50,348 nucleotides of DNA, from the IMG/VR virus record IMGVR_UViG_3300038548_000429, positions 1 to 50,348 of that record; one strand, given 5' to 3'. This stretch comes from a virus. Lineage: Duplodnaviria > Caudoviricetes. This document shows, piece by piece, positions 2,182 to 48,460 of this stretch (positions are counted from its first letter, which is position 1; each line of letters opens with the position of its first letter). The translations under genes were made by a program, and so were the position numbers. A model generated the notes under the pieces. That model did no database searches. It was not told where the DNA came from and saw nothing but the letters and a program-made list of their open reading frames with translations.

Positions 2182-2570
2182 ACAGCGATAAAGTCAAGAG
2201 AAATGAATACCGTCACTATAGGGATAAAATATTATCGGGCGAGTATACTGATGAAGAACGAGGAGTCATTATCGGTATTGCCAACGGAGTCGTTAGATTT
2301 TTAACACATGAAGATAACCAAACCTTAGCAGACGATTTTTGTAACCACGATAATTTTGACTCAATGTATCCCTTACTTGAAATAATCTCCGATGAAATGG
2401 ATATATACAATTGGATTCATCATAGTGATGAAATCATGGGCAAGTTGATAGGCCCCGCATTATGGGAATCCTATTTCCTGATGCACAACACAACCGCATT
2501 AGACGCTGCACATTTATCAGGAGGTATTGATTATCGAATGGAGCAACAAAATGAACACCATACCTGCTAG
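2178..2570 (+). CDS. hypothetical protein
   Basis: ORF coupled to the primase by ATGA overlap, with AGGA RBS. Confidence 0.6.
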   Translation: MNSDKVKRNEYRHYRDKILSGEYTDEERGVIIGIANGVVRFLTHEDNQTLADDFCNHDNFDSMYPLLEIISDEMDIYNWIHHSDEIMGKLIGPALWESYFLMHNTTALDAAHLSGGIDYRMEQQNEHHTC

Positions 2571-3003
2571 ATTACAGCAAGCTCGCATTAACAGCCGTAA
2601 GTCTATTTATCAAGCCGCTGGGCATATCACCGATTGCACACCCGACTTGCTGAGAATGTGGGAAAATAACGATGTGGAGCTTGAACCGACTATAAAACAG
2701 ATGTTGGACATCCTACAGTTGTATGAGGTTACGCTTAAATGGCTGATTAGCGGCGATGATAGCGACGATGGGCATATCCACAAGCAAGCCCGCGCAAAAC
2801 CGCTTAAAACGCCCGTATCGTCGTTTCGGCTCAATTCAGTTCAGCGCATCTACCTAGCGGCGCTTAATTGGGGCGGTTCTACTAATGAGCGTGAAATACA
2901 GGTGATGGATTATTTCGAGTTAGTAAGGTGGGGGATGGTGAAGAACGATGTTATCACGGCATTTGGCATACGGTACGCGCAAGATCATTTGGAGGCAACA
3001 TGA
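2551..3003 (+). CDS. XRE-family HTH DNA-binding protein
   Basis: RLQQARINSRKSIYQAA...LRMWENNDVELEP...YEVTLKWLISG fits an XRE HTH. ATG at 2551 follows GGAG. Confidence 0.7.
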   Translation: MNTIPARLQQARINSRKSIYQAAGHITDCTPDLLRMWENNDVELEPTIKQMLDILQLYEVTLKWLISGDDSDDGHIHKQARAKPLKTPVSSFRLNSVQRIYLAALNWGGSTNEREIQVMDYFELVRWGMVKNDVITAFGIRYAQDHLEAT

Positions 3004-11818: not shown

Positions 11819-13348
11819 TTATTGTCTCACTAATCCGATAAATCCTTGTCCACCATCCGCTTCACCTACCGTAATACAGTGCTGGTTATCGGCTACTGCA
11901 ATGCTATTGATGGTCTGATTTGCTGGGCTAGTGAATGACCCTATCACTTCCGTTTGTTTATCGCCTAAATTACCACCACTGCGATCAAACAGCACACGCG
12001 ATAAAGCCGCTGCATCGGTCTGTACGATGAATAAGATAGCGCCTCTGAATCCGGTAAATTTCAAATCCTCAATTGTCCCCACACCTTGTTTCTGAAACGA
12101 TGGCAATGTATAGGCGGGTTTGTTGTTGTTTTGCGGTTTCTTGCTGCGCCAAATCGTACCCGCATCCGTGCCTAAAAACAACTCATCGCGGTCAGGTGGG
12201 GCAGCAATCGCGGTGACAGCGTCGGTTAACGCCGTACCATCCGCTTGCTTCACTGTAGCTAAACTTCCTACACGCGCACCGGATGGGCCATCAATCTTTA
12301 CTACCACGCCACCTGCTCCACCTATCCATGCTAGATTTGAATTGCTCACTGCGCCTACCGTGAGGTCGGCTGATGTAATAACAGCAGCATCGAATGATGT
12401 CCAACTCCCACCACCATCGGTACTGATATAGATGTAGCCACCATCACCAAATGCGATGATGTCACCATTGGGCATCACCATACCATCATTGGGGAAATTG
12501 GCTGTAATGCCAGTGGAGGCAGTAAAGGATGTCGGGCCTAAATCATCGCGCAAGTCCTGCAAAGCTACCCGCGTCGGGCCATGTGATGGGCTAAACACAA
12601 CCAATGTATCGCCTTGCTTCACAATACCTGTGGCGTTGGCTGTCAGGAAATCATCTATAGCAGTGAGATCCCATGTTGCGCCTTTATCCTCACTAAAACC
12701 AACATACGGAATGCTCGTTCCGGCATAACCGGGTGACGCATCCAAATCCGTGACAAATGCGATTTCATTTGTGCCATCTAACTGGTCGCCACAATCGCCA
12801 TAACATTGCTCTGGACTTAGATATATCACTTTGTTGATAGCTACATCTGTGACGTCCTTGCTGATGTCAGTATGCTGCAACTTGGTGGACAATACACGGA
12901 TACCCGCACTATAAGGGAGGCTAAACTTTTGGTCACTTCCGGGTGTGTCGGCGTTATTGGCTAACGGGTCACTGAAATCATTTGAGGTAGAATATGAGTC
13001 TTGAAACTCAGTGATAGCCTGATAATTGGTGATTTCACGAATATCCCCGCACATGTGCCTCACTCTGACATTAACCGGGCAATCTGTGAAACCCTTAACC
13101 TTCAAAAACTCTTGTACTGTCGCACGATACATCATAGTGAATGTAAAACGCTCCCGGTTGCTGGTGACATTACCACCGATATAAGCATCGCCCCCGTCAT
13201 CACCACGTCCCCACTTACTATCTACACTGACACCACCACCTGTTGCGGCATCAATCTCGCCTTGCGTATCCACAATGACCCAGGGATTGCCAGCGCCTTT
13301 CTGAATACCAACTATCGTGCGGCTGCGTTCATTGCTAATTTGTGCCAT
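11819..13348 (-). CDS. major tail tube protein fused to a BNR/Asp-box beta-propeller
   Basis: Position immediately before the chaperones, with Asp-box motifs SEDKGATW and STDGGGSW and repeated VG/GG blade ends. Confidence 0.6.
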   Translation of the reverse strand: MAQISNERSRTIVGIQKGAGNPWVIVDTQGEIDAATGGGVSVDSKWGRGDDGGDAYIGGNVTSNRERFTFTMMYRATVQEFLKVKGFTDCPVNVRVRHMCGDIREITNYQAITEFQDSYSTSNDFSDPLANNADTPGSDQKFSLPYSAGIRVLSTKLQHTDISKDVTDVAINKVIYLSPEQCYGDCGDQLDGTNEIAFVTDLDASPGYAGTSIPYVGFSEDKGATWDLTAIDDFLTANATGIVKQGDTLVVFSPSHGPTRVALQDLRDDLGPTSFTASTGITANFPNDGMVMPNGDIIAFGDGGYIYISTDGGGSWTSFDAAVITSADLTVGAVSNSNLAWIGGAGGVVVKIDGPSGARVGSLATVKQADGTALTDAVTAIAAPPDRDELFLGTDAGTIWRSKKPQNNNKPAYTLPSFQKQGVGTIEDLKFTGFRGAILFIVQTDAAALSRVLFDRSGGNLGDKQTEVIGSFTSPANQTINSIAVADNQHCITVGEADGGQGFIGLVRQ

Positions 13349-13364
13349 GATATTTGTTCCTTTT

Positions 13365-13901
13365 TTACTTTATTTTACGTGAAGCTCTTCGCAGAGCATT
13401 TTCCATTCGTCGTTTAAAATCTGGTTTCAATACATCTTCTAATGTACTTGTGAACTCGCGTGCTTCTATGCCGGGATGAATCACACCTTTTGCAGCAACA
13501 CGCGGCCCGGATGCCTTGCCCGAACCCACATTCGCTTTTGCTATCGGCCTTGTGCGCGGGCTATAGCCTGTCCTAAAGAACAATGTTCCGCCCGGCTTCT
13601 TTGGAAATATTGGGTATGCAGACTTCTTAGGGCCAAACTTGCCCGTCCCTTTATCTACCCAATGGAATATATTCACAATGTCCTTTTTGCCCGTGACATT
13701 GACTATGCCAGTGATTAAATTAGGCGTGATACGATTCTCTGGTGTGAATTTAGGTTTCTTTTTCCATCCTTGCACTGAAGCCGTCAAAAGCGCGGCCAAT
13801 GCGAAAGTGACTACGTGCATTTCTTTATTCAATTCTTGCTTTAACACTTTATCTTGCCGTATCATCTCGGCGCGTATGCTCTTTACTTTACGTGACGCCA
13901 T
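13365..13901 (-). CDS. tail completion / HK97 gp10-like neck protein
   Basis: Basic protein with WVDKGT and HPGIEAREF motifs. Confidence 0.6.
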   Translation of the reverse strand: MASRKVKSIRAEMIRQDKVLKQELNKEMHVVTFALAALLTASVQGWKKKPKFTPENRITPNLITGIVNVTGKKDIVNIFHWVDKGTGKFGPKKSAYPIFPKKPGGTLFFRTGYSPRTRPIAKANVGSGKASGPRVAAKGVIHPGIEAREFTSTLEDVLKPDFKRRMENALRRASRKIK

Positions 13902-14562
13902 TAATAACCTCCATCACCATATTCTTGATGGTGGTATGATAACGATTGGCACGGCTGTATCGCTTACTGGCTGTGCGATTATAAAAGAACACCGGATAGT
14001 CTATGTATAGAGGCTTCACTTTCGCCTTGTAAATGAGAGACGCCATGAATCCCCAATGCTCCCCACCTATATTGAATTCGGGGCTATACCCACCTGCTTT
14101 ATGCCAGTCCTTTTTATCGAACATGAAACTAGCATAACCTATGTTCTTGTGATGTATCATAGATGGCTTGGGAGGGCGTTGATCTACCATGCCATTGCCA
14201 TTTACTTCCACCCAATTGCCATATACAAAATGGCCGGGCTTATAGGCGGTTTTCATCGCTTCCACTGCGCCCTCTGCCAACCAATCATCAGCATCCAATG
14301 GCAATATAAGACCATCGTCTGCCTCGCCTATCGCTAGATTGCGGGCATGACACACGCCCGCTGGAAATGCTGAATGGGTGCTAAAATAGTCTAAATGTGT
14401 GGGATTGCGAAAATGTGATTCTAATGTTTCATATCCATCACCATTGTCACCATCAAACACCACAATCACACTATCACATTGGTCTATGGCACTCTCTACC
14501 GCTTTATTCAGCGTAGAGGCATTATTGTGGCACGGGATAATGCACGTAACTGGTAATGTCAT
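13888..14562 (-). CDS. glycosyltransferase family 2
   Basis: IIPCHN, VVFDG, GVCHARN, PLDADD (GT-A DxD). Confidence 0.85.
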   Translation of the reverse strand: MTLPVTCIIPCHNNASTLNKAVESAIDQCDSVIVVFDGDNGDGYETLESHFRNPTHLDYFSTHSAFPAGVCHARNLAIGEADDGLILPLDADDWLAEGAVEAMKTAYKPGHFVYGNWVEVNGNGMVDQRPPKPSMIHHKNIGYASFMFDKKDWHKAGGYSPEFNIGGEHWGFMASLIYKAKVKPLYIDYPVFFYNRTASKRYSRANRYHTTIKNMVMEVINGVT

Positions 14563-15740
14563 AATGCACCTCGCACTCTAGTCGAGGTGAACTTGCCCCC
14601 ACGCCCTAACGCCTGTTCTTGCACAAAATCCCACGCAAATAGGCTACCTTCATTTATTCCAAACGGATTGGTAATGTTGCGCTCAGTCGTGGGGCCTTCA
14701 TTCAAATCACGTCGCATAATCGCTTGGATAGGGTCACATACCTTCTCTATATCTACAATGAAGGTGTTAGCCAGACGCATCAGGACTTGTGCAAAGTCAT
14801 TATCCATACGCTGATATTGTTCTTGGAATCCTGCTTTATAAAACACCCTCACGGTATTGGGCGCGAATTTAGTGGACTGACTCCCTTCAAACCGTACTTG
14901 AAATATCCCTAAGCGATTGTTTCTAGGCAATACAAGCCCACTATGTAAATTCCATATCTCTAAATCGGTAAGTTCAGTAAAGACCGGGTCGCTCATATAT
15001 TGCACGGGAGTCGTTGTGTCGGTGTAAACGCGATATATATCTACTAATGTAACAAAATCCCCCGCCGTGCTGGTATCGGCTTGGTTGATGTCGCGTGATT
15101 CAGGTTCGTTGTAAGGTGTGTCCCATATATTAGGTTTCACAAATAATGCGCGATGCCCCACAATCGTAATAGTGACGCCATCAGTCGTGACCGTGACAGG
15201 CGCTATCCGAAAGCGTTCATCCCCAGCGGCTTTGCCAGAATCGCTTGCTGTGAAGAATATCTGAATTTCATCTGCACTGAGCGTGGAAGCGACGGTCATG
15301 GTGGCGGTATCATCAGCACTCAATATACCGGGATTCGATTCTGAGTATGTCACCGTAGCATCGTCATCTAATAATGTGGTGGCCCGTTGCCCATATTCAA
15401 TCACATAGCCCATGCTAGTCTGTAGCTGCTGCTGACTCACTGGAATGCCAAAGCCTAGTGGAATTTCCTCAACAAAATACTGAGGCAAAGGCGTGTAGCC
15501 AAGATGGGATGACATTTTGCGATAAGCAGTATATAACCCACGCGCCACTGAATCACGAGAGGGTTGCACCCAACTAGGGCATTGACTAGTCGGTACATCG
15601 TCACCCGTCACCTGATTGAAACGCCAAATCTCTTCTCTAATCTCTTCACGCCAAATATTCAGTAAGTGCGGCGGTATTAAGGAACGCGCCCCCGTGCTGT
15701 TGTTGAGTTGGAAATGCGATGTAAGTTCGGTTATGGCCAT
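14559..15740 (-). CDS. head-tail adaptor-like virion protein
   Basis: First gene of the tail operon, with VRVFYKAGF and C-terminal NPFG typical of adaptor proteins. GGAGG RBS upstream. Confidence 0.55.
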   Translation of the reverse strand: MAITELTSHFQLNNSTGARSLIPPHLLNIWREEIREEIWRFNQVTGDDVPTSQCPSWVQPSRDSVARGLYTAYRKMSSHLGYTPLPQYFVEEIPLGFGIPVSQQQLQTSMGYVIEYGQRATTLLDDDATVTYSESNPGILSADDTATMTVASTLSADEIQIFFTASDSGKAAGDERFRIAPVTVTTDGVTITIVGHRALFVKPNIWDTPYNEPESRDINQADTSTAGDFVTLVDIYRVYTDTTTPVQYMSDPVFTELTDLEIWNLHSGLVLPRNNRLGIFQVRFEGSQSTKFAPNTVRVFYKAGFQEQYQRMDNDFAQVLMRLANTFIVDIEKVCDPIQAIMRRDLNEGPTTERNITNPFGINEGSLFAWDFVQEQALGRGGKFTSTRVRGAL

Positions 15741-15806
15741 AAAAAATCATGCCTCCACATCCACAATAACATATAATATTACGATGCGATACCACTAAGG
15801 AAACAC

Positions 15807-15893
15807 AAAAAGCGCCCATCGGGGAGATAAGGCGCTTTTGCATTGAATTACGTCATTAGCCAAAAAGAATCGGTCAATGCAATCATTATAGCA
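15807..15893 (-). ncRNA. sRNA unit 6 (promoter, stem-loop, terminator)
   Basis: TGCTATAAT (15893-15885); stem TTGCATTGA/TCAATGCAA around a 27-nt loop; terminator AAGCGCC..GGCGCTTTTT. Confidence 0.65.
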
Positions 15894-15903
15894 TAAAACA
15901 AAT

Positions 15904-16023
15904 AAAACCCCCACTTGGGTGTGACGACCTGTGAGGGTTGAGGCCGCTTACGTTTGCGTTTGCCCCACGTAAGAGGGTGTTTATGCAAATAACGCGGCTA
16001 ACGTTATAAATTATAATATACCA
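15904..16023 (-). ncRNA. sRNA unit 5
   Basis: TGGTATATT plus overlapping TATAAT; hairpins ATAACG/CGTTAT and TTACGT/ACGTAA; terminator-like AACCCTCAC..GTGGGGGTTTT. Confidence 0.55.
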
Positions 16024-16030
16024 CGTCACA

Positions 16031-16118
16031 GCACAAAACGCCACCCATTGGCAGCGCCTTGTGCAATTTACATACCATCGTTAGAAGACTCATCTTAAAC
16101 GATAAAGGGAGTATAGCA
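16031..16118 (-). ncRNA. sRNA unit 4
   Basis: TGCTATACT; hairpin ATCGTT..AACGAT; terminator CGCTGCC-AATG-GGTGGCG-TTTT. Confidence 0.6.
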
Positions 16119-16121
16119 CAT

Positions 16122-16197
16122 AAAAAGCGCCCACTAGGGGCGCAAGTTCAGAATAGAGGGAGGAGCTTTATGAAAATCAGTCTCTATCAGTATACCA
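16122..16197 (-). ncRNA. sRNA unit 3
   Basis: TGGTATACT; stem ATAGAG/CTCTAT enclosing ACTGATTTTCATAAAGCTCCTCC; terminator GCGCCC-CTAGT-GGGCGC-TTTTT. Confidence 0.65.
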
Positions 16198-16198
16198 C

Positions 16199-16390
16199 AA
16201 AAAAACAGCCCCACGCTGTTAGGGCTGCTTTCTCCGTCTTATGAGAAACAATTGCCTTACACTTTACCTCACTCAATACATTGTTTGTGTGAAGGGCGTA
16301 ATCGCCATGTTTCCTGTCGTGCTGTCCTAGTATCGAGAATTTCGATACCCGTTGCATATATAGTGTACCACTTCGTCAATGGAAATGCAA
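16199..16390 (-). ncRNA. sRNA unit 2 (longest, ~155 nt)
   Basis: TTGCAT-17bp-TACACT with an extended TG; hairpin GTATCGA..TCGATAC; terminator CAGCCC..GGGCTG-T7. Confidence 0.6.
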
Positions 16391-16414
16391 TGTTGGTGAG
16401 ACGGCCTACAAACT

Positions 16415-16507
16415 AAAACGCCAGCTATTGTTAGTAGCTGGCGTTGGAATCAGCATTTAATAGCGATTCATGTATTGCCCTTCTCAATTCCAATATCAAT
16501 TATAACA
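16415..16507 (-). ncRNA. sRNA unit 1
   Basis: TGTTATAAT; stem TTGGAAT/ATTCCAA around a ~36-nt loop; terminator CGCCAGCTA-7nt-TAGCTGGCG-TTTT. Confidence 0.65.
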
Positions 16508-16509
16508 GA

Positions 16510-18369
16510 TTATGGTTCTTGCGGATAGCAAATCTCGTATAGCTCAGGCTGTCGTGCGAAATAGGCAGTGTGTTCCGGTTCTATCTGGCACACGCGACCG
16601 GGTACAATTGAATAATGTCTCCCACCTGTGAATTCACCAAATGGCTTTTGGTTTTTGCCGTGATACCGCACACCGAAATATGTAGCAGGTGGGCGTTGTG
16701 TGAGATGTACTAAGCCTGTTTTAGGTTGGAATAATTGCGCTACCCTAGCGGTGAACGAATGATGCTGGCGGATGTGGCGTGTCCCACGATTGGCAATGCG
16801 CTTGCGCTCTACATCATGAGCCAGATAGTATTTGATTTTAGCTACCATCTCATCTAATGAATCGAAGCCCACATAATGTTTACCTTCCTCAATACCAATG
16901 AGTTCGTCTAATCGTGGCACATTCTGATGGATAAGTAGGCAATTCCCAGCGGCTATCGCTTGGAATAATCTATTGCTAACAAAGCCATCAGCATCGGGGT
17001 ATTCATTTGTGCCTATAGCAATCTTGGCACTGCGATATAGGGCTTTCGCATTAGTGAAATTATATAATGTAGATGGCTCACTATCCGGCCCATATTGAGC
17101 ATAATCGAATTGCTGCAACCGGGCATCCACTTGCTTACGCGGTTCATTATATACCGTCGCCAGCCACACTACATCTACTGGTTCGGGCTTGAAATCGGCC
17201 TTAACGGGTGGGTCTTCATATCCGATTTGCCAATAAGCAGATTGAATTGCGGTGTCTGTGTACGTCTTCCTAACACTATCATTTACCACAAGTTGCAAAT
17301 CGAATTGACGCAACAAATGGAGCATGTTATCGGATACAAGCGACTTGGGCCAATAATCCCCATTCCAATTTATCCATACCGATTTGGGAGCGTGGGCGCG
17401 GGCCATGCGGATTTGTTCAGGTGCTATGCGGTCAGTATCGTGAAATTGTGTCATCACCATGTTGGGCTTAAATAGGTCAAGGATGTTGCATAAACTCTGA
17501 TAAGGGCTTTTACTGTACATATAGTTAAATTCCCATATCCACTGACCACGCCCGTAATCGCGCAAGGCGTCTCTAAGACCTGTTTTTTGCTCTAATTGGA
17601 TGGGGTGACCCGGTTCATACAGGGGCAAGTATAGGACGCGCAAATGGGCGTTATCGTCGCGTGTAGCAGGTAATGCAGGGATGAATGGGCCGTTAGGATA
17701 CCGCTTAAAATAGCCATTGCTATCATTAGCCGTCATGCGCTCTCTAAGTTCATCTCTTACAATGAGGTCATGCACCTTCACACCGGGTACACGGTCAATA
17801 GAAAGTCCCATTTCCCATATCCGCGCACTGAGATAATTATCCACTCCGTAAGTAATGGGCGGTAGTGCTTCATCATCAATGCCCCACCATCCGGCCTCAT
17901 CGCCTATATCGCGTGGATACATCCCCACTTGTGCATAAACCACCCATTTTTGCGCCCCGTGCGCTGGCATCCCCTGTACGCCGTATATGTCAGAGTTATC
18001 GCCGCGATTGCTGCGATCATCCTCAAATGCCACCCCGCCGCAAGAACGATTGTCCTCAAGGTATATCATTGCCTGTATGATGCCATTATCTAAGAATTGT
18101 ATGTCATCATTAGCCAATACCACATAATCGCCCGTAGACGCAAAAGCTCCATCACAGAATGCCTTTTGCACACCTAGCAATTCGCCATGTTCTATGAGCT
18201 TTATATCATCCTGCTCTTTACACCATGCCAGTGTGCCGTCTGTGCTACCGCCATCTACTACTACGAACTCGCGTTCTATCCCAACCGGGAACTGCACACG
18301 GGCGCTTTCGATCATAGTCTTTAAGTGGGGAAGGCGGTTGTATGTGCCTGTAACAATGCTAATTTTCAC
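16510..18369 (-). CDS. two-domain glycosyltransferase (GT2 + CgeB/Glyco_trans_1_2-like GT-B)
   Basis: N-terminal VVVDGGSTDGT and LANDD; C-terminal YRSAKIAIG, SNRLFQA, IKYYLAHDVERKRIA and HSFTARV. Confidence 0.85.
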   Translation of the reverse strand: MKISIVTGTYNRLPHLKTMIESARVQFPVGIEREFVVVDGGSTDGTLAWCKEQDDIKLIEHGELLGVQKAFCDGAFASTGDYVVLANDDIQFLDNGIIQAMIYLEDNRSCGGVAFEDDRSNRGDNSDIYGVQGMPAHGAQKWVVYAQVGMYPRDIGDEAGWWGIDDEALPPITYGVDNYLSARIWEMGLSIDRVPGVKVHDLIVRDELRERMTANDSNGYFKRYPNGPFIPALPATRDDNAHLRVLYLPLYEPGHPIQLEQKTGLRDALRDYGRGQWIWEFNYMYSKSPYQSLCNILDLFKPNMVMTQFHDTDRIAPEQIRMARAHAPKSVWINWNGDYWPKSLVSDNMLHLLRQFDLQLVVNDSVRKTYTDTAIQSAYWQIGYEDPPVKADFKPEPVDVVWLATVYNEPRKQVDARLQQFDYAQYGPDSEPSTLYNFTNAKALYRSAKIAIGTNEYPDADGFVSNRLFQAIAAGNCLLIHQNVPRLDELIGIEEGKHYVGFDSLDEMVAKIKYYLAHDVERKRIANRGTRHIRQHHSFTARVAQLFQPKTGLVHLTQRPPATYFGVRYHGKNQKPFGEFTGGRHYSIVPGRVCQIEPEHTAYFARQPELYEICYPQEP

Positions 18370-19700
18370 TATCCGTTTTCCTCAATATCTAGTCGGGCGA
18401 AATAGGTCTCCGCACCACTCACCACCACACGCGCGGCCAATACCAATTCATCGCGTGTTCCATCAATGAGTGAGCCAAGACGTAGGCGATTTTGTATCAC
18501 CTCATGCCCGATATTAGCTGACTTTTGCGTGAGCGTTCCACCTAAATCTATCCCGCCTGTGAGGGTGTTGGTGTCATCGCGGCTAATGTCATATTCTATG
18601 CTCCCATTAGTCAACCCTACCCATGATACTTGGTCATCCCCCGCCACTGTGGGGTTTAATAGCAGCATGGATTCAAAATTAGAATTACCTACCGTCATGA
18701 TGGCATAATCCAATATATTCACAACCGCATGTAGATGATCCTCTTTGAGGCGGATAGATAGAATAGGGTATAAGTTAGTATCATTGCCAGCAGAAAACCC
18801 GCTTGCACCCCGCGTCACACCACGTATCACACCCGCATTCTGTTCGCCACCTTCACTAATTACAGTCGAACAGATTTGTACCAATGAAGCCGCCGCACCT
18901 GTGCCATCGTTATTAATTTCAAATCTCACAGGCAAGTTTGGACTACTCATATATACGGTTGTGAGTGTGTTGGCATGATGCGAATGGTGGGCAATAATTG
19001 GGATACCATCTATAAATATCCCCCACCTTACTTGCCCCGTACCAAGCCATTCATAATCTAAAAAGAATATCTGTACTTTCGTTGTATCAATTGTTACTTG
19101 CGATAACCCTTCACCATCTAAGGTATCGAAATTCCACGCGGATTGCGGTGTGACTGAATCAACCGCGCTACCAGACGCACTAGAACGAATCACCAGCGAT
19201 AACACACTATCCTTTAGTTGAAAAAACATGCCATCATCATCATTATATAACCCTAATCGGCGCGTGATACCATCCTCTGCCGCACCCAATACCCCTGTAA
19301 ATATGGCAAGTTGCGATTTGCCGGGTTGATAATTATTATGGGTTTTCTGTTGTCGTATTCGTGTCCCCGCTGTGGCTGCGCTCACTGACATAGTAGAGGC
19401 TGCTAAGGGTATAGAATGTGTAGAGGTAGTTCCCGCGCCCGATGTTTCGGCGTCGTCAAAAAGCAATGGGTTGTTATCGAATATCTGTTTGCTATCAAAT
19501 AGAGTGTGAGGTGTAGTGACCCGTTGCCTTGCGAATGCGTCCAATGCCGCGCTATCTACCATCCCCACCGATAACGCTATAGGGTCACGGGCAAAGGGGT
19601 GTGTGGCAAATAATAGTGCGTGGGTATCATCTTGCATATCTAACCACCGCTGTCTTATATCAGGTGGAGTCAGTCTAATAGGTTGAATTTTATCGGGCAT
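18369..19700 (-). CDS. beta-rich virion protein with a lectin-like fold
   Basis: DAFARQRVT, YQPGKSQL, DYEWLGTGQVRWG and NLPVRFEI resemble a recurring family of phage structural proteins. Confidence 0.55.
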   Translation of the reverse strand: MPDKIQPIRLTPPDIRQRWLDMQDDTHALLFATHPFARDPIALSVGMVDSAALDAFARQRVTTPHTLFDSKQIFDNNPLLFDDAETSGAGTTSTHSIPLAASTMSVSAATAGTRIRQQKTHNNYQPGKSQLAIFTGVLGAAEDGITRRLGLYNDDDGMFFQLKDSVLSLVIRSSASGSAVDSVTPQSAWNFDTLDGEGLSQVTIDTTKVQIFFLDYEWLGTGQVRWGIFIDGIPIIAHHSHHANTLTTVYMSSPNLPVRFEINNDGTGAAASLVQICSTVISEGGEQNAGVIRGVTRGASGFSAGNDTNLYPILSIRLKEDHLHAVVNILDYAIMTVGNSNFESMLLLNPTVAGDDQVSWVGLTNGSIEYDISRDDTNTLTGGIDLGGTLTQKSANIGHEVIQNRLRLGSLIDGTRDELVLAARVVVSGAETYFARLDIEENG

Positions 19701-20538: not shown

Positions 20539-21501
20539 TTACACCGTCCCTAATGCTAGGATTGCAGGCGTAATGGGAGTATCCCATATTGCAAATTGTG
20601 CCAGATAGCCATTCCAGGGAGAAATTGGGGCGGGGCCAGATGCTCCCAACGCTGTAGCACCTGCACTTAGTCCGATTCCTGCTGTAGCGTCACAAACTGC
20701 TGTACCTTCAGAAACGCCATCAACCACCATTTCTATCTCATTGCCTATCACTGACCACGAAAATATAAAACTTTGCCAAGCAGTTATACCTGTTACCGAT
20801 TTGGTAATTGACCGTTCAGCTAATCCACTGCCTCTGTGGCGGACTCGTAAATCATCGCCCGATGAGTCCATTGCAATATAATTGTTTGCATCACGACGGA
20901 TACGAAACTGTGCGCGGAATTGGTCGTTCCACGATCCGGCGTCGTTTGGTTTCACCCACAGTAACACACACCCCTCATCCATATCGAAATCAGCACCAAA
21001 TCCCCCATCAAAAATATCTACAGAATCATTTACCCCATCAAAGAACGGAGCTTCACCACCCGTTGGCGGTATTTGTCCATCCCATGTCACACCTATATAT
21101 GGCGAGTTATAACCGTTTCCAGATGAATCTAGTGCATTAGCGCCACTACCCTCATTTAACTTAAGGTAGAGGAATGGGTTGGTCGCTAACACATCACCAG
21201 CATAATCAACCGCAAATGCAATCAATTCTTTCAAGTATACAATCTCAAGGTCACTCTGCCATTGGATATATAGCCTATGTAAGGCGCTACTTAACGTGGC
21301 ATTAGTAGTGCCTAGCACCTCCAATATCGCAGCATCAATAATGACAGCACCCAAATCACCCACCACTGGCAACGGTACTACCGCCGTGAGCAGAGGTTCT
21401 TGCACTGTAAGGTCTTCGATAAATGCTTTCAGGCGGATGTAGTCCAATCCATCATTTTGCAAAGCCAATGGACGCCCGCGCACGTCGCTTAATGTGGACA
21501 T
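20539..21501 (-). CDS. LamG / concanavalin-A-like lectin domain protein
   Basis: YLKLNEGSG..ALDSSGNG, FFDGVND, LWVKP, MVVDGV and WNGYLAQFAIWDTPIT. Confidence 0.8.
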   Translation of the reverse strand: MSTLSDVRGRPLALQNDGLDYIRLKAFIEDLTVQEPLLTAVVPLPVVGDLGAVIIDAAILEVLGTTNATLSSALHRLYIQWQSDLEIVYLKELIAFAVDYAGDVLATNPFLYLKLNEGSGANALDSSGNGYNSPYIGVTWDGQIPPTGGEAPFFDGVNDSVDIFDGGFGADFDMDEGCVLLWVKPNDAGSWNDQFRAQFRIRRDANNYIAMDSSGDDLRVRHRGSGLAERSITKSVTGITAWQSFIFSWSVIGNEIEMVVDGVSEGTAVCDATAGIGLSAGATALGASGPAPISPWNGYLAQFAIWDTPITPAILALGTV

Positions 21502-22415
21502 TAGGCGTCTCCATTTTTCATACGGGTCGCTTTCCGTTTACCTTCATTTTGTGCAGCCTCTAACTGAGATGTCACGGTGCGATCATCAATACCATCACCA
21601 TTTTCATCTACAAATTCAGTATCATGTGACGCCTTTAATAGTCCTATCAACCTACCACGATCTAATTTGGCAGATTTTCTCTTGCCTTCACGCACTAAGA
21701 TGCTACGAATTTGCTCTCTTATGTTACGTTCTTTAGGGCCGCTACGCTTCCACAAATCATCATATTTCATAGCATCATAATCAATGGCTACATCAGCAGC
21801 ATCCGCACGAAATATTGCAAGCCCGCAATCACCCGGCTCTGTAAGATAGTAATTGGGAACTATGTCCGTTGCTTCAATTCCCATCCTCACTTGTGAACCA
21901 ACTAAGTGATGCTGTGCGGCATGTGATATGAGAAAGCCACCCGGCTTTATCAACCTATCGCGCTGTTCCCATATTGACCGTACACGGTAGCTATCATGTG
22001 ACCCACGTTCAAATACAAAATCATAGTCATCATCCTGTGAGGTTAACCAGTCGTAAATATCCTCTTTTAATAATTCAGAGGAGCGCCGTAAACGTACTGG
22101 CCAACCCTGACCCGCGCCCTTTACATTACTTACCGCCTTTAGGGTAGAAATGTTATCATTAGCCTTCATAGCCAATAGCATATGCGTAGTAGAGCAGCCG
22201 TGCCATGTACCCAATTCCAGTAACCTAGTCGGCTTAGTGGCACGAATCAAGGCATACAATACTTGCCCATCCACACGCCATATTGACCCATTGGGCCACG
22301 CGCCGTAGCTATCGTCCCATCCAGTCTCGGTGTCCTCTGCGGCATAGTTGATTAACTCAGTAGCGTCTAGTCCAAAGTCCGCTGCTAATTTTGTGAGTGT
22401 GTGTGTTAAGTTCAT
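21501..22415 (-). CDS. class I SAM methyltransferase (Methyltransf_24-like) with C-terminal extension
   Basis: LLELGTWHGCST, YDFVFE and KPGGFLISH. Confidence 0.8.
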   Translation of the reverse strand: MNLTHTLTKLAADFGLDATELINYAAEDTETGWDDSYGAWPNGSIWRVDGQVLYALIRATKPTRLLELGTWHGCSTTHMLLAMKANDNISTLKAVSNVKGAGQGWPVRLRRSSELLKEDIYDWLTSQDDDYDFVFERGSHDSYRVRSIWEQRDRLIKPGGFLISHAAQHHLVGSQVRMGIEATDIVPNYYLTEPGDCGLAIFRADAADVAIDYDAMKYDDLWKRSGPKERNIREQIRSILVREGKRKSAKLDRGRLIGLLKASHDTEFVDENGDGIDDRTVTSQLEAAQNEGKRKATRMKNGDA

Positions 22416-22819
22416 TTGATTTCCTTTACCATGCTCTTCAAATTGCCATTGTTCGATTGCAAATATCGTGCCTCTGCCTCTTGCGTAATTTGGGCTAGAC
22501 CCGTTTCACGCATCTTATTGCATATCGTGCGCGTTAAATCGGGATGTCTCCCAAAGCCCCACCTATCCACGCCAATGTCAAGGACATGTAACTTAGCATC
22601 CGGGCAAGTCGGTATATGCTCCCTCAGTAGTGGTTCGCCTGCAATAATCACCTTATCGGCCCACTCGCATAACATAGCTCGTGTAGCAGGGGAGGTAGTC
22701 ACCATCCCGGCAACAATCACATCTTTCATGCCTACTACATCTTTCAATATGCCGCCCGTACCCATGCTTCTAACATTACCGTAGGCGCAAAATACCGCTA
22801 TTTTTGTATCCGTGTTCAT
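22412..22819 (-). CDS. low-molecular-weight PTP / arsenate-reductase-like protein
   Basis: N-terminal P-loop VFCAYGNVRS (C-X5-R-S), EWADKVII and LDIGVD. Confidence 0.7.
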   Translation of the reverse strand: MNTDTKIAVFCAYGNVRSMGTGGILKDVVGMKDVIVAGMVTTSPATRAMLCEWADKVIIAGEPLLREHIPTCPDAKLHVLDIGVDRWGFGRHPDLTRTICNKMRETGLAQITQEAEARYLQSNNGNLKSMVKEIK

Positions 22820-23459
22820 TTGATTCCTCTATATATAGTTTCTGTTCAATGGCTAATCCGCAATCACTCGGTTCTGTAATGTAGGTGAAGGGCACTCCAC
22901 CTGCTAACTTTATGCCCATCCTCACCGCGTTACCCACCGCATGATGTAAGGCATCATGACTAAGCATGAAGCCACCGGGCGATAGGCGCGGCTTTGATGC
23001 CATCCACAAACCGCATGTAAGTTCTATTGTGTGGTTGGTATCCTCAAAGATGAAATCATATTGATTCGTCGTTTCGGTCATCCATTCCATTGCATCACGC
23101 AGATAAAATGTGAATGGGTCTGTTAAATACTCTGGGATCATGTTGCCAGGACTAATACCATGCGTGTCTCTGTCCACTGCATCCAATATAGCCCCGTTGT
23201 CATTAGCCTGCATAGCCATCAATATATGGGTGGCAGAGCAGCCGTGCCATGTCCCTAGTTCAAGGATGTGTTTAGGCTTGATAGCACGAATGAGCGCGTA
23301 TAACGTTTGACCCTCGACTTGCCATAAGCTACCCTCCGGCCAGTCACCTTCGCCCCTATCCCATCCGGTTTCGGTGTCTTCGTCAGCATAGGCAATAAGC
23401 TCATCAGCATCTAAATTAAAATCTATCGCTATTTTAGATAATGTACGAGATAGATTCAT
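22776..23459 (-). CDS. class I SAM methyltransferase (paralog of 21501..22415)
   Basis: ILELGTWHGCSA, YDFIFEDTNH and SPGGFMLSHD. Confidence 0.8.
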   Translation of the reverse strand: MNLSRTLSKIAIDFNLDADELIAYADEDTETGWDRGEGDWPEGSLWQVEGQTLYALIRAIKPKHILELGTWHGCSATHILMAMQANDNGAILDAVDRDTHGISPGNMIPEYLTDPFTFYLRDAMEWMTETTNQYDFIFEDTNHTIELTCGLWMASKPRLSPGGFMLSHDALHHAVGNAVRMGIKLAGGVPFTYITEPSDCGLAIEQKLYIEESNEHGYKNSGILRLR

Positions 23460-28255: not shown

Positions 28256-28578
28256 CTATTATAATTATCCGGCGTGATTGCTATCACATCTATATTCACT
28301 CCTACCTTCATCGCAGCGAACACCGCCGTCTTGTAAGCCAAATCCCAACCCGCTTCATTCAACCCGGCATAGCAAATTATATTCTGCCTACGGCGCGTCA
28401 AAGTCACGGTATTAGGTTCAGAAGCGGGCCGCGTCTCAAAGTCCTTAATAGCAGCATCAATCGCTTCCTTGAATCGGACTCTAGTCCGCTTAGGCAGATT
28501 GTCCCACCATAGCGGCTTCTCTTGAGTGCGCGTTATCTGTGCGTTATTGTGTTGGTAGGCTGTCATGAGTCCCTCCAT
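28243..28578 (-). CDS. hypothetical protein
   Basis: ORF in the operon; the real start is probably at 28566. Confidence 0.5.
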   Translation of the reverse strand: MEGLMTAYQHNNAQITRTQEKPLWWDNLPKRTRVRFKEAIDAAIKDFETRPASEPNTVTLTRRRQNIICYAGLNEAGWDLAYKTAVFAAMKVGVNIDVIAITPDNYNSWWK

Positions 28579-28934
28579 ACCTGAATCATAGCAGCCACAC
28601 CCGCGATGGCAAACACCATGATAATGTCGCGTAACTCAACGGCACGTCCATTAATCCACAAGCCCCAAAATATGATGGCTATCCAAAATGACGTGCAATA
28701 TACGCATGACAATAACGCGCCTACTGCGCGAATGAGACGTGTTTCGCCTGTTTGCTTAATGACAGTGCGGACAGCAACAACATTGCCTAATTGCACTATA
28801 TCCTCATTGGCTTCACGCGCCCCGAACAAATGCCGCAGCCACTTGAATACATCCTCATTGGTGATAGCATACGATAATCGCCATACAGCCATCCCAACTA
28901 TAATCACGGTGAAAAGAATGTCAATCATGTCCAA
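28563..28934 (-). CDS. DUF1360-like membrane protein
   Basis: AVWRLSYAIT.ED and LLSCVYCTSFW, with TM helices. Confidence 0.65.
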   Translation of the reverse strand: MDMIDILFTVIIVGMAVWRLSYAITNEDVFKWLRHLFGAREANEDIVQLGNVVAVRTVIKQTGETRLIRAVGALLSCVYCTSFWIAIIFWGLWINGRAVELRDIIMVFAIAGVAAMIQVWRDS

Positions 28935-29022
28935 TCACCTTTATAGCGTGTCAGAAATATCCATGTGAGATTGGTCAATATAGAACCTAGAATAAAGCCT
29001 AATAGAATATATGTAGTTGGAG

Positions 29023-29934
29023 TCATGCGTTACCACCAAATTTATTCAGCAAATCCACAACTTCTTGTGTATCCGGTGCAATTTTGCGTGGGTCGGGGAT
29101 AACCGTGACACGGTGCTTGCGGTGTGTAAGGTGGGGCTGCACATCCCGCGCATCCATGAAGAGCAAGCGGCTAGAATCGGTTTTAGGATAGAGACGTTTG
29201 CTCACGCTCCCGCTGAACCGCGCTTGCTTCGCCACCATCACTAGCACATCAGTGTCAAATTGCTGGCCTGCAACACCCGCTGCTATTGAACTTCCTTCTT
29301 TACATTTGCACATTGTAACTCCCCACGCATTAGCGTGTTTTTGTGTAAGTAGTCGGTAAAAATCTTCCATCCATGAAGTAATTTGCATTGGCGACTTATC
29401 CGGACTGACCGGGCTATCGCCTTGTGTTCGGTTGTACGTCAATAACGTCTCATCTAACTTTACGCCGCACACGCCAATCTGATGCAACCGCATATAGAGT
29501 TCAATATCTTCCATGCCCGGCAACGATTCATCAAAGCCACCTATCCACATCAGTGCCTTGCGCGGTACTAAGCACGTTACGGTATGCGCCATGCCATCTT
29601 TGAATATATCAAACTCACTAGCAGGCACATGCTCCATGCCATCATCCGTAAGCCAATTCGTATAGACGTACTTGCCTTGCTCATAGCGCCCCAGCGTCTT
29701 CTCTACGAAGTCCGGTGTGATAGTGTCATCAGCATCCAAGAACACCACAAAGGGCGCTGTAGCGGATTTAATCCCTTGATTCCTTGCCCACGCTGGCCCG
29801 TGTCCCTGCTCATCTATAATGGGTATAGTATTGCACCTTACAGTCTGCGCTTCCGCAGCATCTATAGCAGTAGTGATATGTGCATGGTAGGGCGCAATGG
29901 GGATGATGATGTCGCAAATAGGTGTAGAGTTCAT
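29023..29934 (-). CDS. glycosyltransferase family 2
   Basis: IIIP, GPAWARNQG, VFLDADD and GGFDESLPGMED. Confidence 0.85.
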   Translation of the reverse strand: MNSTPICDIIIPIAPYHAHITTAIDAAEAQTVRCNTIPIIDEQGHGPAWARNQGIKSATAPFVVFLDADDTITPDFVEKTLGRYEQGKYVYTNWLTDDGMEHVPASEFDIFKDGMAHTVTCLVPRKALMWIGGFDESLPGMEDIELYMRLHQIGVCGVKLDETLLTYNRTQGDSPVSPDKSPMQITSWMEDFYRLLTQKHANAWGVTMCKCKEGSSIAAGVAGQQFDTDVLVMVAKQARFSGSVSKRLYPKTDSSRLLFMDARDVQPHLTHRKHRVTVIPDPRKIAPDTQEVVDLLNKFGGNA

Positions 29935-30037
29935 AGCCCTATCGTATCACAAGCGGAAGTCAGGCACAATAACGTATATTACAAAGTGTATACGGGTATA
30001 CAAGTGTAAAGAACTTATATAGATGTGATGATGGGCC

Positions 30038-30066
30038 TTCACTGAGAAGGGATAAGGTGGTACACT
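30038..30066 (+). promoter_or_regulatory. sigma70-type promoter of the plus-strand small-gene operon
   Basis: TTCACT-17bp-TACACT with an extended TG. Confidence 0.55.
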
Positions 30067-30095: not shown

Positions 30096-30305
30096 ATGAG
30101 CATGACAGACAAAGAACGAATCGAAGAACTAGAGAACTTACTATATGACATGCAAGATGTAAGCCACGACTTGCTACCTAACCCGCACCCCTTCATTGTC
30201 TACATCAATCGTGCGCGGAGCATGTTAGGTGTGAGACAATATGAGATACAAGCAGAGCGCAAATTACAGAATGAGGAAACGGATGCCAACCAAGAAACCA
30301 CGTAG
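30096..30305 (+). CDS. hypothetical protein
   Basis: GAGGAG RBS. Confidence 0.55.
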   Translation: MSMTDKERIEELENLLYDMQDVSHDLLPNPHPFIVYINRARSMLGVRQYEIQAERKLQNEETDANQETT

Positions 30306-30477
30306 CTACATCTACTTATCGAATCTGAACAAAGCCCGCGCATTGAAGCATGGGCAGTCGCTCGGCTACACGTCGCTCAGTGCCTATATGAACGCGCTAT
30401 TGCTGCGTGAAGTACCTCACTATGAGCGCGAATTGGGACGTGGGGAATACACGAGAAAAGCAAAGGAGACTAAGTGA
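30283..30477 (+). CDS. ribbon-helix-helix-like regulator
   Basis: MPTKKPRSYIYLS...GYTSLSAYMNALL fits a beta-alpha-alpha pattern. GAGG RBS. Confidence 0.5.
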   Translation: MPTKKPRSYIYLSNLNKARALKHGQSLGYTSLSAYMNALLLREVPHYERELGRGEYTRKAKETK

Positions 30478-30680
30478 TGAGCAAGCAAGATTACGTTGTC
30501 TGTCCTCAGTGTCGCGGTGATGGGTTGCTGGCGTTAGAGTGTTGGCTGTGCGAAGGTGATAGAGTGATTGGCCGGCAGATTTTGATCGACATCAAGGCTG
30601 GGATGGAAGACGCAAAGAACGGTAATACGCACGATATTTCGACGCTGTGGGATGGTATTGATGATGAGGAGACTGAGTGA
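30474..30680 (+). CDS. small DnaJ-type Zn-finger protein
   Basis: CPQCRGDG and CWLCEG. Confidence 0.55.
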   Translation: MMSKQDYVVCPQCRGDGLLALECWLCEGDRVIGRQILIDIKAGMEDAKNGNTHDISTLWDGIDDEETE

Positions 30681-30865
30681 TGAGCGAGAATGAACCTAAT
30701 CGTTGCGGTTGGTGCGGGAAATACCTTGAGGGTAATAATACGATGTGCGCTCATCAGGGGCCACCATGTAACCCTCACATGCAAGATATTCATGAGAAAG
30801 AAATGGAAGAACAAGCCCGACAACAAGAAGAAATAGATTTCTATCGGAGACATCCCAACGGATGA
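30677..30865 (+). CDS. small Cys-rich hypothetical protein
   Basis: Starts inside the junction repeat; CGWCG. Confidence 0.5.
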   Translation: MMSENEPNRCGWCGKYLEGNNTMCAHQGPPCNPHMQDIHEKEMEEQARQQEEIDFYRRHPNG

Positions 30866-30922
30866 TTGCTTCTTCAGACATTTAGACGCAATAATATATT
30901 GATAAATTAGGAGGATGGAATT

Positions 30923-31180
30923 GTGAGCGAGAAGCTAGGTACATTACATTGGGGCAAGGCGGTTGTTCGCATAAGTCGAAGCAATACGTCTGGATGGAAC
31001 GAGTCTGAATATCGCAAGGGGAGACATTCCGCATATACCGATTGTCGATATTCGCGAATGTTTGGGCAATCATGCAGGAAACTTACCGTGAGTTATTGTA
31101 CAGGGTATGTGTTAGCTTGGAATATGTACTCAACACGCGCACGATTTACGAACACGTTGAAACGATTTGACTTGCTTTAA
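30923..31180 (+). CDS. hypothetical protein
   Basis: AGGAGG RBS and GTG start, MSEK N-terminus like its neighbours. Confidence 0.5.
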   Translation: MSEKLGTLHWGKAVVRISRSNTSGWNESEYRKGRHSAYTDCRYSRMFGQSCRKLTVSYCTGYVLAWNMYSTRARFTNTLKRFDLL

Positions 31181-31197
31181 AAAGGAGACTGAGTGAT

Positions 31198-31365
31198 ATG
31201 AGCGAGAAACGGATATACGAACCATCCCCTGAAGAATTAGCTCAAGCAATAATGCAAATAATTCAAAATTGGGATGAATGGAGACGTAATCAAATCAGCG
31301 GCAAGCTATTTGATAACCTAGATTATGTCATAGAAAACGCCAGAAAGCTAACAGAAGGAGACTGA
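31198..31365 (+). CDS. hypothetical 55-aa protein
   Basis: Manual translation MSEKRIYEPS...LTEGD, with AGGAG RBS. Confidence 0.55.
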   Translation: MSEKRIYEPSPEELAQAIMQIIQNWDEWRRNQISGKLFDNLDYVIENARKLTEGD

Positions 31366-31368
31366 GTG

Positions 31369-31530
31369 ATGAGCGAGAATGAAATTATAGAATCAATTGA
31401 CAAATTGAACGCGGACTATGACGAGGCCCACAATCGCAAAACGAATGCAGAGGAGGATATGATAGTCATCAACAGCAACATCCAAGAATTGCAAGATAAA
31501 CTATTTATGATTCGCACCCGCCGCGAGTGA
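31369..31530 (+). CDS. hypothetical 53-aa coiled-coil protein
   Basis: Manual translation MSENEIIESI...RTRRE, with AGGAG RBS. Confidence 0.55.
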   Translation: MSENEIIESIDKLNADYDEAHNRKTNAEEDMIVINSNIQELQDKLFMIRTRRE

Positions 31531-31563
31531 AGTCACCATCCGCGCATAGCTTGACATGAATGG

Positions 31564-31601
31564 AAAAAGGGAGTCGGGCTAGAGGCCTAACTCCCTTCTT
31601 T
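31564..31601. terminator. bidirectional intrinsic terminator
   Basis: AAAAAGGGAGT...ACTCCCTTCTTT between the convergent capsid gene and small-gene operon. Confidence 0.7.
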
Positions 31602-31653
31602 ATTATACTACATGGTTGTACCGAACTGTACCCTTATCCTAATTATGATGATA

Positions 31654-40398: not shown

Positions 40399-40427
40399 TA
40401 TACAATCCCCCTGCTAGGTGGTATACT
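40399..40427 (+). promoter_or_regulatory. extended -10 promoter
   Basis: TGGTATACT (40419-40427), upstream of an AAGGAGG RBS and ATG at 40466. Confidence 0.55.
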
Positions 40428-40465
40428 ATGTATACAGATAAGGCATACAACAAAGGAGGTTTACA

Positions 40466-44833: not shown

Positions 44834-44923
44834 GATTCCTTATGTTATTTTATTCAATTATGGTGTATACTTGTATACAGAATAACATATTATACGATGA
44901 AAGCCTATAGTGAGGAACTTTTC

Positions 44924-47488: not shown

Positions 47489-47613
47489 AAAAAAGACACC
47501 GTGAAGTGTCTTTAAAACTATGCCTTGCTGAGGGGCGAAAAGAATGTTGTCTGGTTACAGGCTACACCTCAACGCCCCGAATAGCAAGGTACAATGACAG
47601 AGTTTATTACACA
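47489..47613 (-). ncRNA. putative antisense hairpin RNA A with terminator
   Basis: Long hairpin CCTTGCT/AGCAAGG and GGGGCG/CGCCCC, then AAAGACAC-TTCACG-GTGTCTTTTTT. Confidence 0.5.
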
Positions 47614-48320: not shown

Positions 48321-48460
48321 AAAAAACGCACCGCTAAGTGCGTTTAGTAAAATCCGTTTTGAGTGGCGGAATGAACCGGGATTCATTGGAAGAATGATAC
48401 CAAAATCCCCCTTCATTGTCTAGCCTGAATAAACGGATTAATTTCCGACTTTATTACACA
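48321..48460 (-). ncRNA. putative antisense hairpin RNA B with terminator
   Basis: Hairpin AATCCGTTT/AAACGGATT, AATGAA/TTCATT and GGGATT/AATCCC, then AAACGCAC-TTAGCG-GTGCGTTTTTT. Confidence 0.5.

Follow-up and report, generated by a model that had tools for sequence, protein, structure and literature searches.

Six tandem promoter-terminator units in a putative accessory slot of an uncultured tailed phage: a possible array of small-RNA genes

The complete virus record IMGVR_UViG_3300038548_000429 (50,348 bp with direct terminal repeats; the window hereafter, meaning the whole stretch of DNA analysed) comes from an uncultured marine-sediment tailed phage, and one of its intergenic gaps holds six consecutive promoter-terminator units that may encode small regulatory RNAs (sRNAs). 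The gap spans 769 nt (15741-16509) between the genes of a 619-aa glycosyltransferase, whose stop codon adjoins the promoter of unit 1, and of a 393-aa protein (Table 1). An earlier note on this DNA had called it the longest gap of its kind, and it is: the next longest gap between crude gene calls measures 328 nt. It lies in one long run of minus-strand genes, from ~40304 down to 3927, which includes the small and large terminase subunits (PHROG 6299 and 9), a 443-aa virion structural protein (PHROG 1645, E = 2.7e-83), a weak tape-measure-like protein and several glycosyltransferase and methyltransferase genes; replication and regulatory genes occupy the plus strand.

The six extended -10 motifs attributed to the minus strand were all found at the positions claimed, in the letters as well as in pattern scans, together with the TTGCAT -35 of unit 2 (16390-16385, 17 nt upstream of the -10 hexamer). 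A -35-like hexamer is present in unit 2 only, the other five units being without one; an extended -10 promoter needs no -35. Counting both strands, the window holds 14 matches to TGNTAYAMT; five lie in the array, and they are the only ones on the minus strand. The sixth promoter, TGGTATATT, is found only under the looser pattern TGNTANNNT, which matches 155 times in the window. Scored with TG-N-TA[CT]A[ACT]T, the gap carries six matches on its sense strand and none on the opposite strand, and 5000 dinucleotide shuffles of the gap gave no match (4045 shuffles), one (862), two (87) or three (6), and never more than three. The 9-mers of unit 3 (TGGTATACT) and unit 2 (TGGTACACT) are identical to plus-strand promoter-like sites at 40419 and 30058, respectively, which head plus-strand gene groups beside paired GTATAC operator-like repeats; the array promoters are without the second GTATAC. 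Given that these 9-mers are common to both settings and that no other strong minus-strand extended -10 is present, the units are probably transcribed apart from the surrounding late genes, and the promoter sequences suggest that the polymerase reading them is the host's own, unmodified. The GTATAC pairs (inverted repeats of the TGTATAC-N2-3-GTATACA type at 40415-40440 (+), 44850-44880 (+) and ~29985-30015) overlap or follow the -10 of promoter-like sites heading plus-strand gene groups. In appearance they are repressor operators, and the helix-turn-helix protein encoded at 2527-3003 (PHROG 'transcriptional repressor', E = 3.7e-5) is a candidate for the phage repressor concerned. Another minus-strand motif, TGTTATTCT (four copies), was rejected as a promoter class, being the complement of the spacers between Shine-Dalgarno (SD) sequence and ATG of plus-strand genes.

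Terminator scans bore out that each promoter is followed, 60-160 nt on, by a GC-rich hairpin and a T-tract. A terminator tool applied to 14000-18500 returned six terminator-like sites, four of which are minus-strand array sites (16445, 16220, 16143 and 16053), and a second scan (stem of at least 6, loop of at most 16) found five terminators in the gap, missing that of unit 4, which the tool had found. The second scan applied to 1000 shuffles yielded no terminator in 537, one in 331, two in 108, three in 22 and four in 2. Defining a strict unit as an extended -10 with a terminator 40-175 nt further on, we counted five in the gap, none in 983 of 1000 shuffles and one in the other 17; on both strands of the whole 50-kb window these five are the only strict units. 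The control named in the earlier note, shuffled DNA, never approached the pattern in copies of the gap, either in promoters or in whole units, and the six-unit promoter/terminator architecture is real, not chance. Four of the five internal junctions are as close as had been described, although the next -10 follows the T-tract by about 0-15 nt instead of within about 10, and units 1 and 2 lie about 45 nt apart. The terminator of unit 2 ends with a run of seven T. The description of the payloads as unrelated holds among the payloads themselves, but the terminator 3' arms with their T-tracts fall into two similarity families of 16-mers (four copies at 75-100% identity, and two copies of another at 88%), which constitute the sole repeated sequence in the array. 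Likewise, the long-range stems reported for units 1, 3 and 6 are present in the DNA, where 6-9 bp close loops of 36, 23 and 27 nt, but they are absent from the minimum-energy folds, and the 5' arms of those in units 3 and 6 overlap the start sites expected there.

We assumed that each RNA starts 7 nt after its -10 (predicted RNAs in Table 1). With the exception of unit 3, the predicted RNAs have folds that beat dinucleotide shuffles at z <= -2.5, the values for units 1 to 6 being -3.39, -4.06, -1.53, -2.74, -2.56 and -2.93. The 5' 39 nt of unit 3 are unpaired and include CUCCUCCC, an anti-Shine-Dalgarno-like stretch. In the core of unit 5, a hairpin of 7 bp with a loop of 13 nt precedes the terminator, which comprises a 9-bp hairpin and the T-tract.

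Table 1. Predicted features of the gap and the two genes that flank it (window coordinates)
Feature	Position	Strand	Details
Unit 1 extended -10, TGTTATAAT	16499..16507	-	pattern scan
Unit 1 predicted RNA, ~84 nt	16409..16492	-	terminator hairpin 16445-16417 (11 bp), then TTTTAGTTTG
Unit 2 extended -10, TGGTACACT	16362..16370	-	pattern scan
Unit 2 predicted RNA, ~158 nt	16198..16355	-	5' 8-bp hairpin, long central hairpin, terminator ~16234-16199
Unit 3 extended -10, TGGTATACT	16189..16197	-	pattern scan; directly 3' of the unit 2 T-tract
Unit 3 predicted RNA, ~62 nt	16121..16182	-	terminator 16143-16127
Unit 4 extended -10, TGCTATACT	16110..16118	-	pattern scan
Unit 4 predicted RNA, ~70 nt	16034..16103	-	hairpin from the first nucleotide, terminator ~16061-16034
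Unit 5 extended -10, TGGTATATT	16015..16023	-	looser TGNTANNNT pattern
Unit 5 predicted RNA, ~114 nt	15895..16008	-	conserved core 15978-15904
Unit 6 extended -10, TGCTATAAT	15885..15893	-	pattern scan
Unit 6 predicted RNA, ~73 nt	15806..15878	-	terminator ~15839-15808, homologous to the last terminator of the L005 gap
Possible seventh promoter, TGTTATTGT	15763..15771	-	weaker extended -10, 22 nt before the ATG of the 393-aa gene
Upstream flanking gene, 619-aa two-domain glycosyltransferase	16510..18369	-	Pfam Glycos_transf_2 (1.4e-15), Glyco_trans_1_2 (5.7e-19)
Downstream flanking gene, 393-aa protein, no known family	14559..15740	-	homologs in L003, L004 and L005 (see text)

The six units are non-coding by every test run. 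Neither strand of the gap has a stop-free run above 100 codons (of ~287 possible), even with one stop reassigned; the longest such runs measure 64-100 codons across strands and codes, and alternative genetic codes were rejected as a source of hidden coding since no long frame emerges. An SD-filtered scan lists four small open reading frames (ORFs) on each strand: on the sense strand three of 10-14 codons and a 52-codon GTG frame (16044), and on the plus strand four of 8-24 codons, one of them with its ATG at 16170 after GGAGG. These leave room for an explanation in which the units are micro-protein genes, encoding very short peptides such as the 11-codon MAITPFTQTMY of unit 2 (at 16308), or in which the 24-codon plus-strand ORF forms a pair of the type I toxin-antitoxin kind with units 2 and 3, which it overlaps. 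We regard this as highly improbable. No ORF preceded by an SD lies within the transcripts of units 1, 3, 5 and 6, and in unit 2 a stem sequesters the start region of the micro-ORF. The GTG frame, the only SD-preceded frame across unit 5, starts upstream of that unit's promoter, in the unit 4 terminator, and crosses the promoter and both hairpins of unit 5, whose conserved core is itself without an ORF. The 24-aa peptide lacks hydrophobic character, and no promoter was recognised for its ORF, there being no extended -10 on the plus strand of the gap. Three of the longer gap frames, of 56 aa (minus) and of 61 and 54 aa (plus), have no Pfam match. The 24-codon ORF, MKISLYQYTTKKQPHAVRAAFSVL (16170-16244), follows a perfect Shine-Dalgarno sequence that is the complement of the CUCCUCCC stretch, and lies antisense to the unit 2 terminator and the unit 3 promoter. 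The 'MAIT' common to unit 2 and the start of the 393-aa gene was examined as a sign that unit 2 is a fossil of that start, and rejected, with a local alignment score of 23 against a shuffle mean of 19.2 and maximum of 30.

No curated RNA family accounts for the units, in agreement with the earlier note: Rfam 15, its CRISPR repeat families included, has no match at gathering score in the whole window, and at E <= 5 the array region gives chance-level matches only, namely NsiR1 (RF02399) on the unit 1 terminator (18.8 bits vs a gathering score of 39; E = 4.2) and SNORD35 (17.6 of 36 bits). ARAGORN found no tRNA or tmRNA gene in the window.

To place the gap among related phages, we searched viral, metagenome and genome contig collections by protein and pattern scans. 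A blastn search of 15400-16900 against 50,697 phage records gave no match, and scans for exact copies of two stretches from the unit 5 core found none in viral contigs and none in genome contigs. Scanning with the 393-aa protein returned no viral contig and one metagenome contig, and its alignment-based counterpart two distant loci in viral contigs and none in genome contigs. The glycosyltransferase scan returned two distant loci (L003 and L004), the alignment-based one none, and the 443-aa virion protein a single short fragment match (L002), which was not used. The metagenome contig, L005 (3098 bp), is the single close relative that these scans gave, with 68% protein identity to the window in the glycosyltransferase and 64% in the 393-aa homolog. 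At the same site it carries a gap of 1256 nt with the same design. All five of its strict terminators lie on the sense strand; of its six TAYAHT -10 boxes, three are extended and two directly abut the preceding T-tract. We parsed this gap into about seven modules. Two encode proteins, namely a 104-aa DUF433 protein at 1775-2089 (Pfam E = 2.8e-7; an antitoxin-like family) and a 72-aa ORF with a hydrophobic N-terminus at 2112-2330, each with its own promoter-like box and the latter with a strong terminator; the rest are without an ORF. The promoter/terminator cassette design is common to both closely related genomes at hand, and the prediction that relatives would keep the architecture at this locus while varying the number and payload of the units came true in L005, the sole close relative. 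In the distant relatives, whose glycosyltransferases are 39% and 32% identical and whose syntenic 393-aa homologs are 25% (L004) and 23% (L003) identical, there is no gap, and the slot holds a GT2 glycosyltransferase, or a GT2 protein with a sulfotransferase and a DUF1360 protein. Judging from these comparisons, the site is a variable accessory slot, and the protein-coding cassettes of L005 argue that it is an accessory-cassette slot and not a dedicated RNA array. Three TGNTAYAMT matches clustered in another relative (G002) lie antisense inside a 609-aa ORF and were judged to be chance.

The two gaps have two parts in common, the core of unit 5 and the last terminator with the leader of the 393-aa gene (window 15838-15709 vs L005 2534-2652, 69% over 132 columns). 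Where the window has TGTTATTGT, which may restart the downstream operon, L005 carries TGATATATT. This conserved end, with an extended -10 at the matching place, would suit an operon boundary, in which a stack of terminators parts the upstream packaging and head genes from those downstream, the short transcripts are constitutive, and downstream genes are expressed through a phage antiterminator or the seventh promoter (15771-15763), much like the lambda PR'-tR' '6S' transcript with its late promoter and terminator. The same-strand gene block, which has no TGNTAYAMT match on that strand outside the array, also agrees with a boundary. For that purpose, however, one terminator would be enough, and six promoters with unrelated transcribed regions superfluous. 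An antiterminator-like gene was not recognised in Pfam or PHROG scans, and the distant relatives have neither gap nor terminator stack at this junction; we consider a boundary improbable.

The core of unit 5 (window 15978-15904, L005 1400-1474) is identical at 70 of 75 nt and is the most conserved stretch in common with L005. In the flanking genes, identity of the coding DNA is 66.4% and 63.7%, and the best of their 1642 75-nt windows has 65 matches, short of 70. Of the 22 consensus pairs of the unit 5 core, 20 are unchanged and two have become G-U through a change on one side, which leaves no pair broken; the other three of the five substitutions are at unpaired positions. Among random sets of five substitutions, we roughly estimate that about 3-4% would leave every pair intact. 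The pattern fits a constrained RNA. Unit 5 stands fifth in the window array and first in L005, a change of position that fits cassette shuffling.

The conservation of unit 5 bears directly on the main rival to an array of sRNA genes, namely that the cassettes are mostly empty or decaying. Under that explanation, the junctions are the functional parts, as insulators and as patches of recombination homology like those of T4-type phages, while the payloads are relics left over from genes lost via junction-to-junction deletion and the RNAs are by-products. Several observations agree with it. Junction 3' arms and T-tracts are the only sequence repeated in the array, the L005 slot holds protein-coding cassettes and the distant relatives protein genes only, five of the six payloads have no homolog, and the excision or swapping of ORFans by recombination between such junctions is documented (PMC2839356, in the part drawn on here). 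However, the payload hairpin of unit 5 is kept at 93% and its promoter-proximal part is not, which is the opposite of what junctions alone would predict. The payloads are moreover strongly structured, and six in a row would be an unusual load in a tightly packed 50-kb genome in which other gaps do not exceed 328 nt. Empty cassettes are therefore possible but, in our view, unlikely.

The remark in the earlier note that the array belongs to no described family was too strong, given three kinds of known element: the PeSLs of T4-type phages, morons, and prophage sRNA genes. For these systems we rely on portions of the cited sources. PeSLs (promoter-early stem-loops) combine a terminator with a promoter; they flank ORFans that can be swapped and bring about the exchange of these (Arbiol et al. 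2010, PMC2839356; Comeau et al. 2014, PMC4122927). As in PeSLs, a stem-loop terminator is fused to a host-type promoter in a variable (hyperplastic) region, terminator adjoins promoter at four of the five internal junctions (0-15 nt), and the cassettes differ between relatives. That the junctions are the sole repeated sequence may be a further likeness; the repeat is limited to the 16-nt families of 3' arm and T-tract, -10 boxes being similar by definition. PeSLs, in the portions used, have both -35 and -10 boxes, an AT-rich part upstream and, at the 3' end, the Shine-Dalgarno sequence and start codon of an ORFan; the array has extended -10 promoters, five of six without -35, and no credible ORF in its cassettes. 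The similarity between its junctions is weak (16-mers at 75-94%), and it sits in a 50-kb genome that is not T4-type, though the slot is variable. The term moron denotes an independent transcription unit that has spread among phages (Cumby et al. 2012, PMC3594210). Like morons, the array has its own promoters and terminators, lies between two same-strand late genes, is absent from relatives and adjoins glycosyltransferase genes, a typical accessory function. Classical morons, as portrayed there, are single and protein-coding, whereas the array comprises six units in a row, none encoding a protein. A protein gene benefiting the lysogen was not found: the six units have no ORF, and Pfam/PHROG scans of the window recognised no integrase that would speak for a temperate phage.

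Stand-alone sRNA genes among phage structural genes are known from the Pas sRNAs of E. coli prophages, 95.8-99.8% of whose hits lie beside capsid or tail genes (bioRxiv 10.64898/2026.05.13.724894). Those, as far as the portion used describes them, are single, validated families of lambdoid prophages, whereas the array is heterologous, has no sequence or Rfam relation to them and presumably belongs to an unrelated host. In heterocystous cyanobacteria, NsiR1 genes stand head to tail, each copy with its own promoter (PMC4030482), as the six units do, but the NsiR1 array consists of direct repeats of one gene, whereas the phage payloads are unrelated. Phage non-coding RNAs from transcript maps are mostly derived from untranslated regions (UTRs) according to the part consulted of PMC10914365. 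Each predicted unit resembles a generic sRNA gene in having a promoter to itself and a Rho-independent terminator, in measuring ~50-300 nt and in lacking an ORF. Pathogenic E. coli reportedly also has prophage-encoded base-pairing sRNAs, termed anti-sRNAs. A limited open-access literature search, supplements excluded, found no row of unrelated, ORF-free promoter-terminator cassettes in a phage. The design fits a variation on the PeSL and moron concepts, with mixed RNA and protein content in L005.

We favour the reading that the gap is an accessory slot whose cassettes carry small regulatory RNA genes, and give it a probability of about 0.5. According to this reading, the gap would be a hyperplastic, 'moron'-type accessory slot in the late-gene block, built of composite junctions in which an intrinsic terminator and its T-tract run into the TG of an extended -10. 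The six cassettes would each be a self-contained unit transcribed by the host housekeeping RNA polymerase into one short RNA of about 62-158 nt, structured or open in its 5' part and ending in a terminator hairpin with a U-tail. Such a layout is the standard anatomy of trans-acting base-pairing small RNAs, and since the payloads are non-coding, the products would most likely be regulatory sRNAs. They might act on host or competitor mRNAs; the CU-rich anti-Shine-Dalgarno stretch of unit 3 could block ribosome binding sites, and the two-hairpin RNA of unit 5 may have been kept through sequence constraint or recent transfer. Cassettes would be gained, lost and reordered among related phages, probably via recombination at similar junctions. 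That the slot is a modular, fast-turnover 'sRNA cassette island', in which phages exchange unrelated sRNA genes via terminator-promoter junctions, goes a step further and is a tentative proposal that we hold to be rather doubtful.

Several points weigh against the favoured reading. The case for sRNAs is drawn from sequence, from which we infer transcription, timing, action in trans and targets, and the RNA starts are assumed. A search of sequencing runs listed one DNA data set, possibly from the source sample, and no RNA data set; mapping about 57% of the DNA run placed no reads, which speaks neither for nor against the array. Unit 3 folds no better than its shuffles. Duplex energies between the six units and 70 phage translation start regions lie within the range of 25 shuffles. 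Unit 3, with its exposed CUCCUCCC, comes nearest to standing out (best duplex -29.9; null best mean -24.2, sd 2.6, min -31.0). The identity of unit 5 could stem from recent lateral transfer rather than purifying selection, and its covariation comes from two sequences with no compensatory double change. L005, the sole close relative, is only a 3.1-kb fragment, and five of the six payloads lack a homolog in the collections scanned. Finally, no host can be named, with terminase pointing to distant Streptococcus phages and the 443-aa protein to distant cyanobacteria phages. The more specific suggestions of the earlier note, guides, decoys and a 'spacer array', found no support. The array has no repeats and no Cas-like or other partner gene beside it, and complementarity to the phage's own translation start regions does not go beyond shuffled controls. 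A blastn-short comparison of the units with the window gave exact matches of at most 13 nt among the matches listed.

The surroundings of the array are those of a little-known phage. The best terminase matches among cultured phages are 21-27% identical, which places it far from them, and to judge from its proteins it is a novel tailed phage unrelated to T4-type phages. The best cultured matches of the 443-aa virion protein (18369-19700, -), at ~35% identity and 88% coverage, are T4-like cyanophages such as S-RIM8, to which the rest of the genome is unrelated. The late block is rich in glycan- and methyl-transfer genes, with three glycosyltransferases, two Methyltransf_24 and one DUF1360 (13888-14562, 16510-18369, 21501-23459 and 28563-29934), and relatives add a sulfotransferase; this density suggests modification of virion or host-surface glycans. 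In a pairwise alignment with its 509-aa counterpart in L003, a 509-aa protein (11819-13348, -) displays repeated S-x-D-x-G-x-(T/S)-W motifs (BNR/Asp-box-like) and may be a beta-propeller receptor-binding or glycan-binding protein. A second ORF-poor stretch, 30097-31653, lies inside the minus-strand block with a GC skew of +0.20 and holds several plus-strand ORFs of 54-85 aa behind the TGGTACACT promoter-like site at 30058; it looks like an inserted module of opposite orientation. In the plus-strand early region there are strong hairpins at 47492-47513 and 48324-48345 (-), with A-runs on one side and T-runs on the other, and the plus-strand gene starts near them share an SD-spacer-ATG sequence (AAGGAGAATAACAATGAATAA-like), suggesting paralogous small genes.

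What the locus means depends on the reading adopted. Should the cassettes be empty, it would still document PeSL-like cassette turnover outside the T4 group. Should the array be real, it would be a source of compact, insulated promoter-terminator parts, and an extended -10 fused to a preceding terminator and followed by an ORF-free payload would be a simple signature by which phage sRNA genes could be sought in metagenomes without expression data. Unit 5, more conserved than the neighbouring protein genes, is a concrete candidate for functional study. If the proposal of an sRNA cassette island is true, the slot would be the RNA counterpart of protein moron and anti-defence islands, in which swapping RNA genes of 60-160 nt would retune host takeover or counter-defence, and unit 5 would be a widely useful member moved between array positions. 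Phage small RNAs are known mostly as single genes or UTR-derived fragments; a real array would show that a phage is able to line up several unrelated sRNA genes in a single exchangeable slot, by the junction principle that serves T4-type phages for orphan protein genes.

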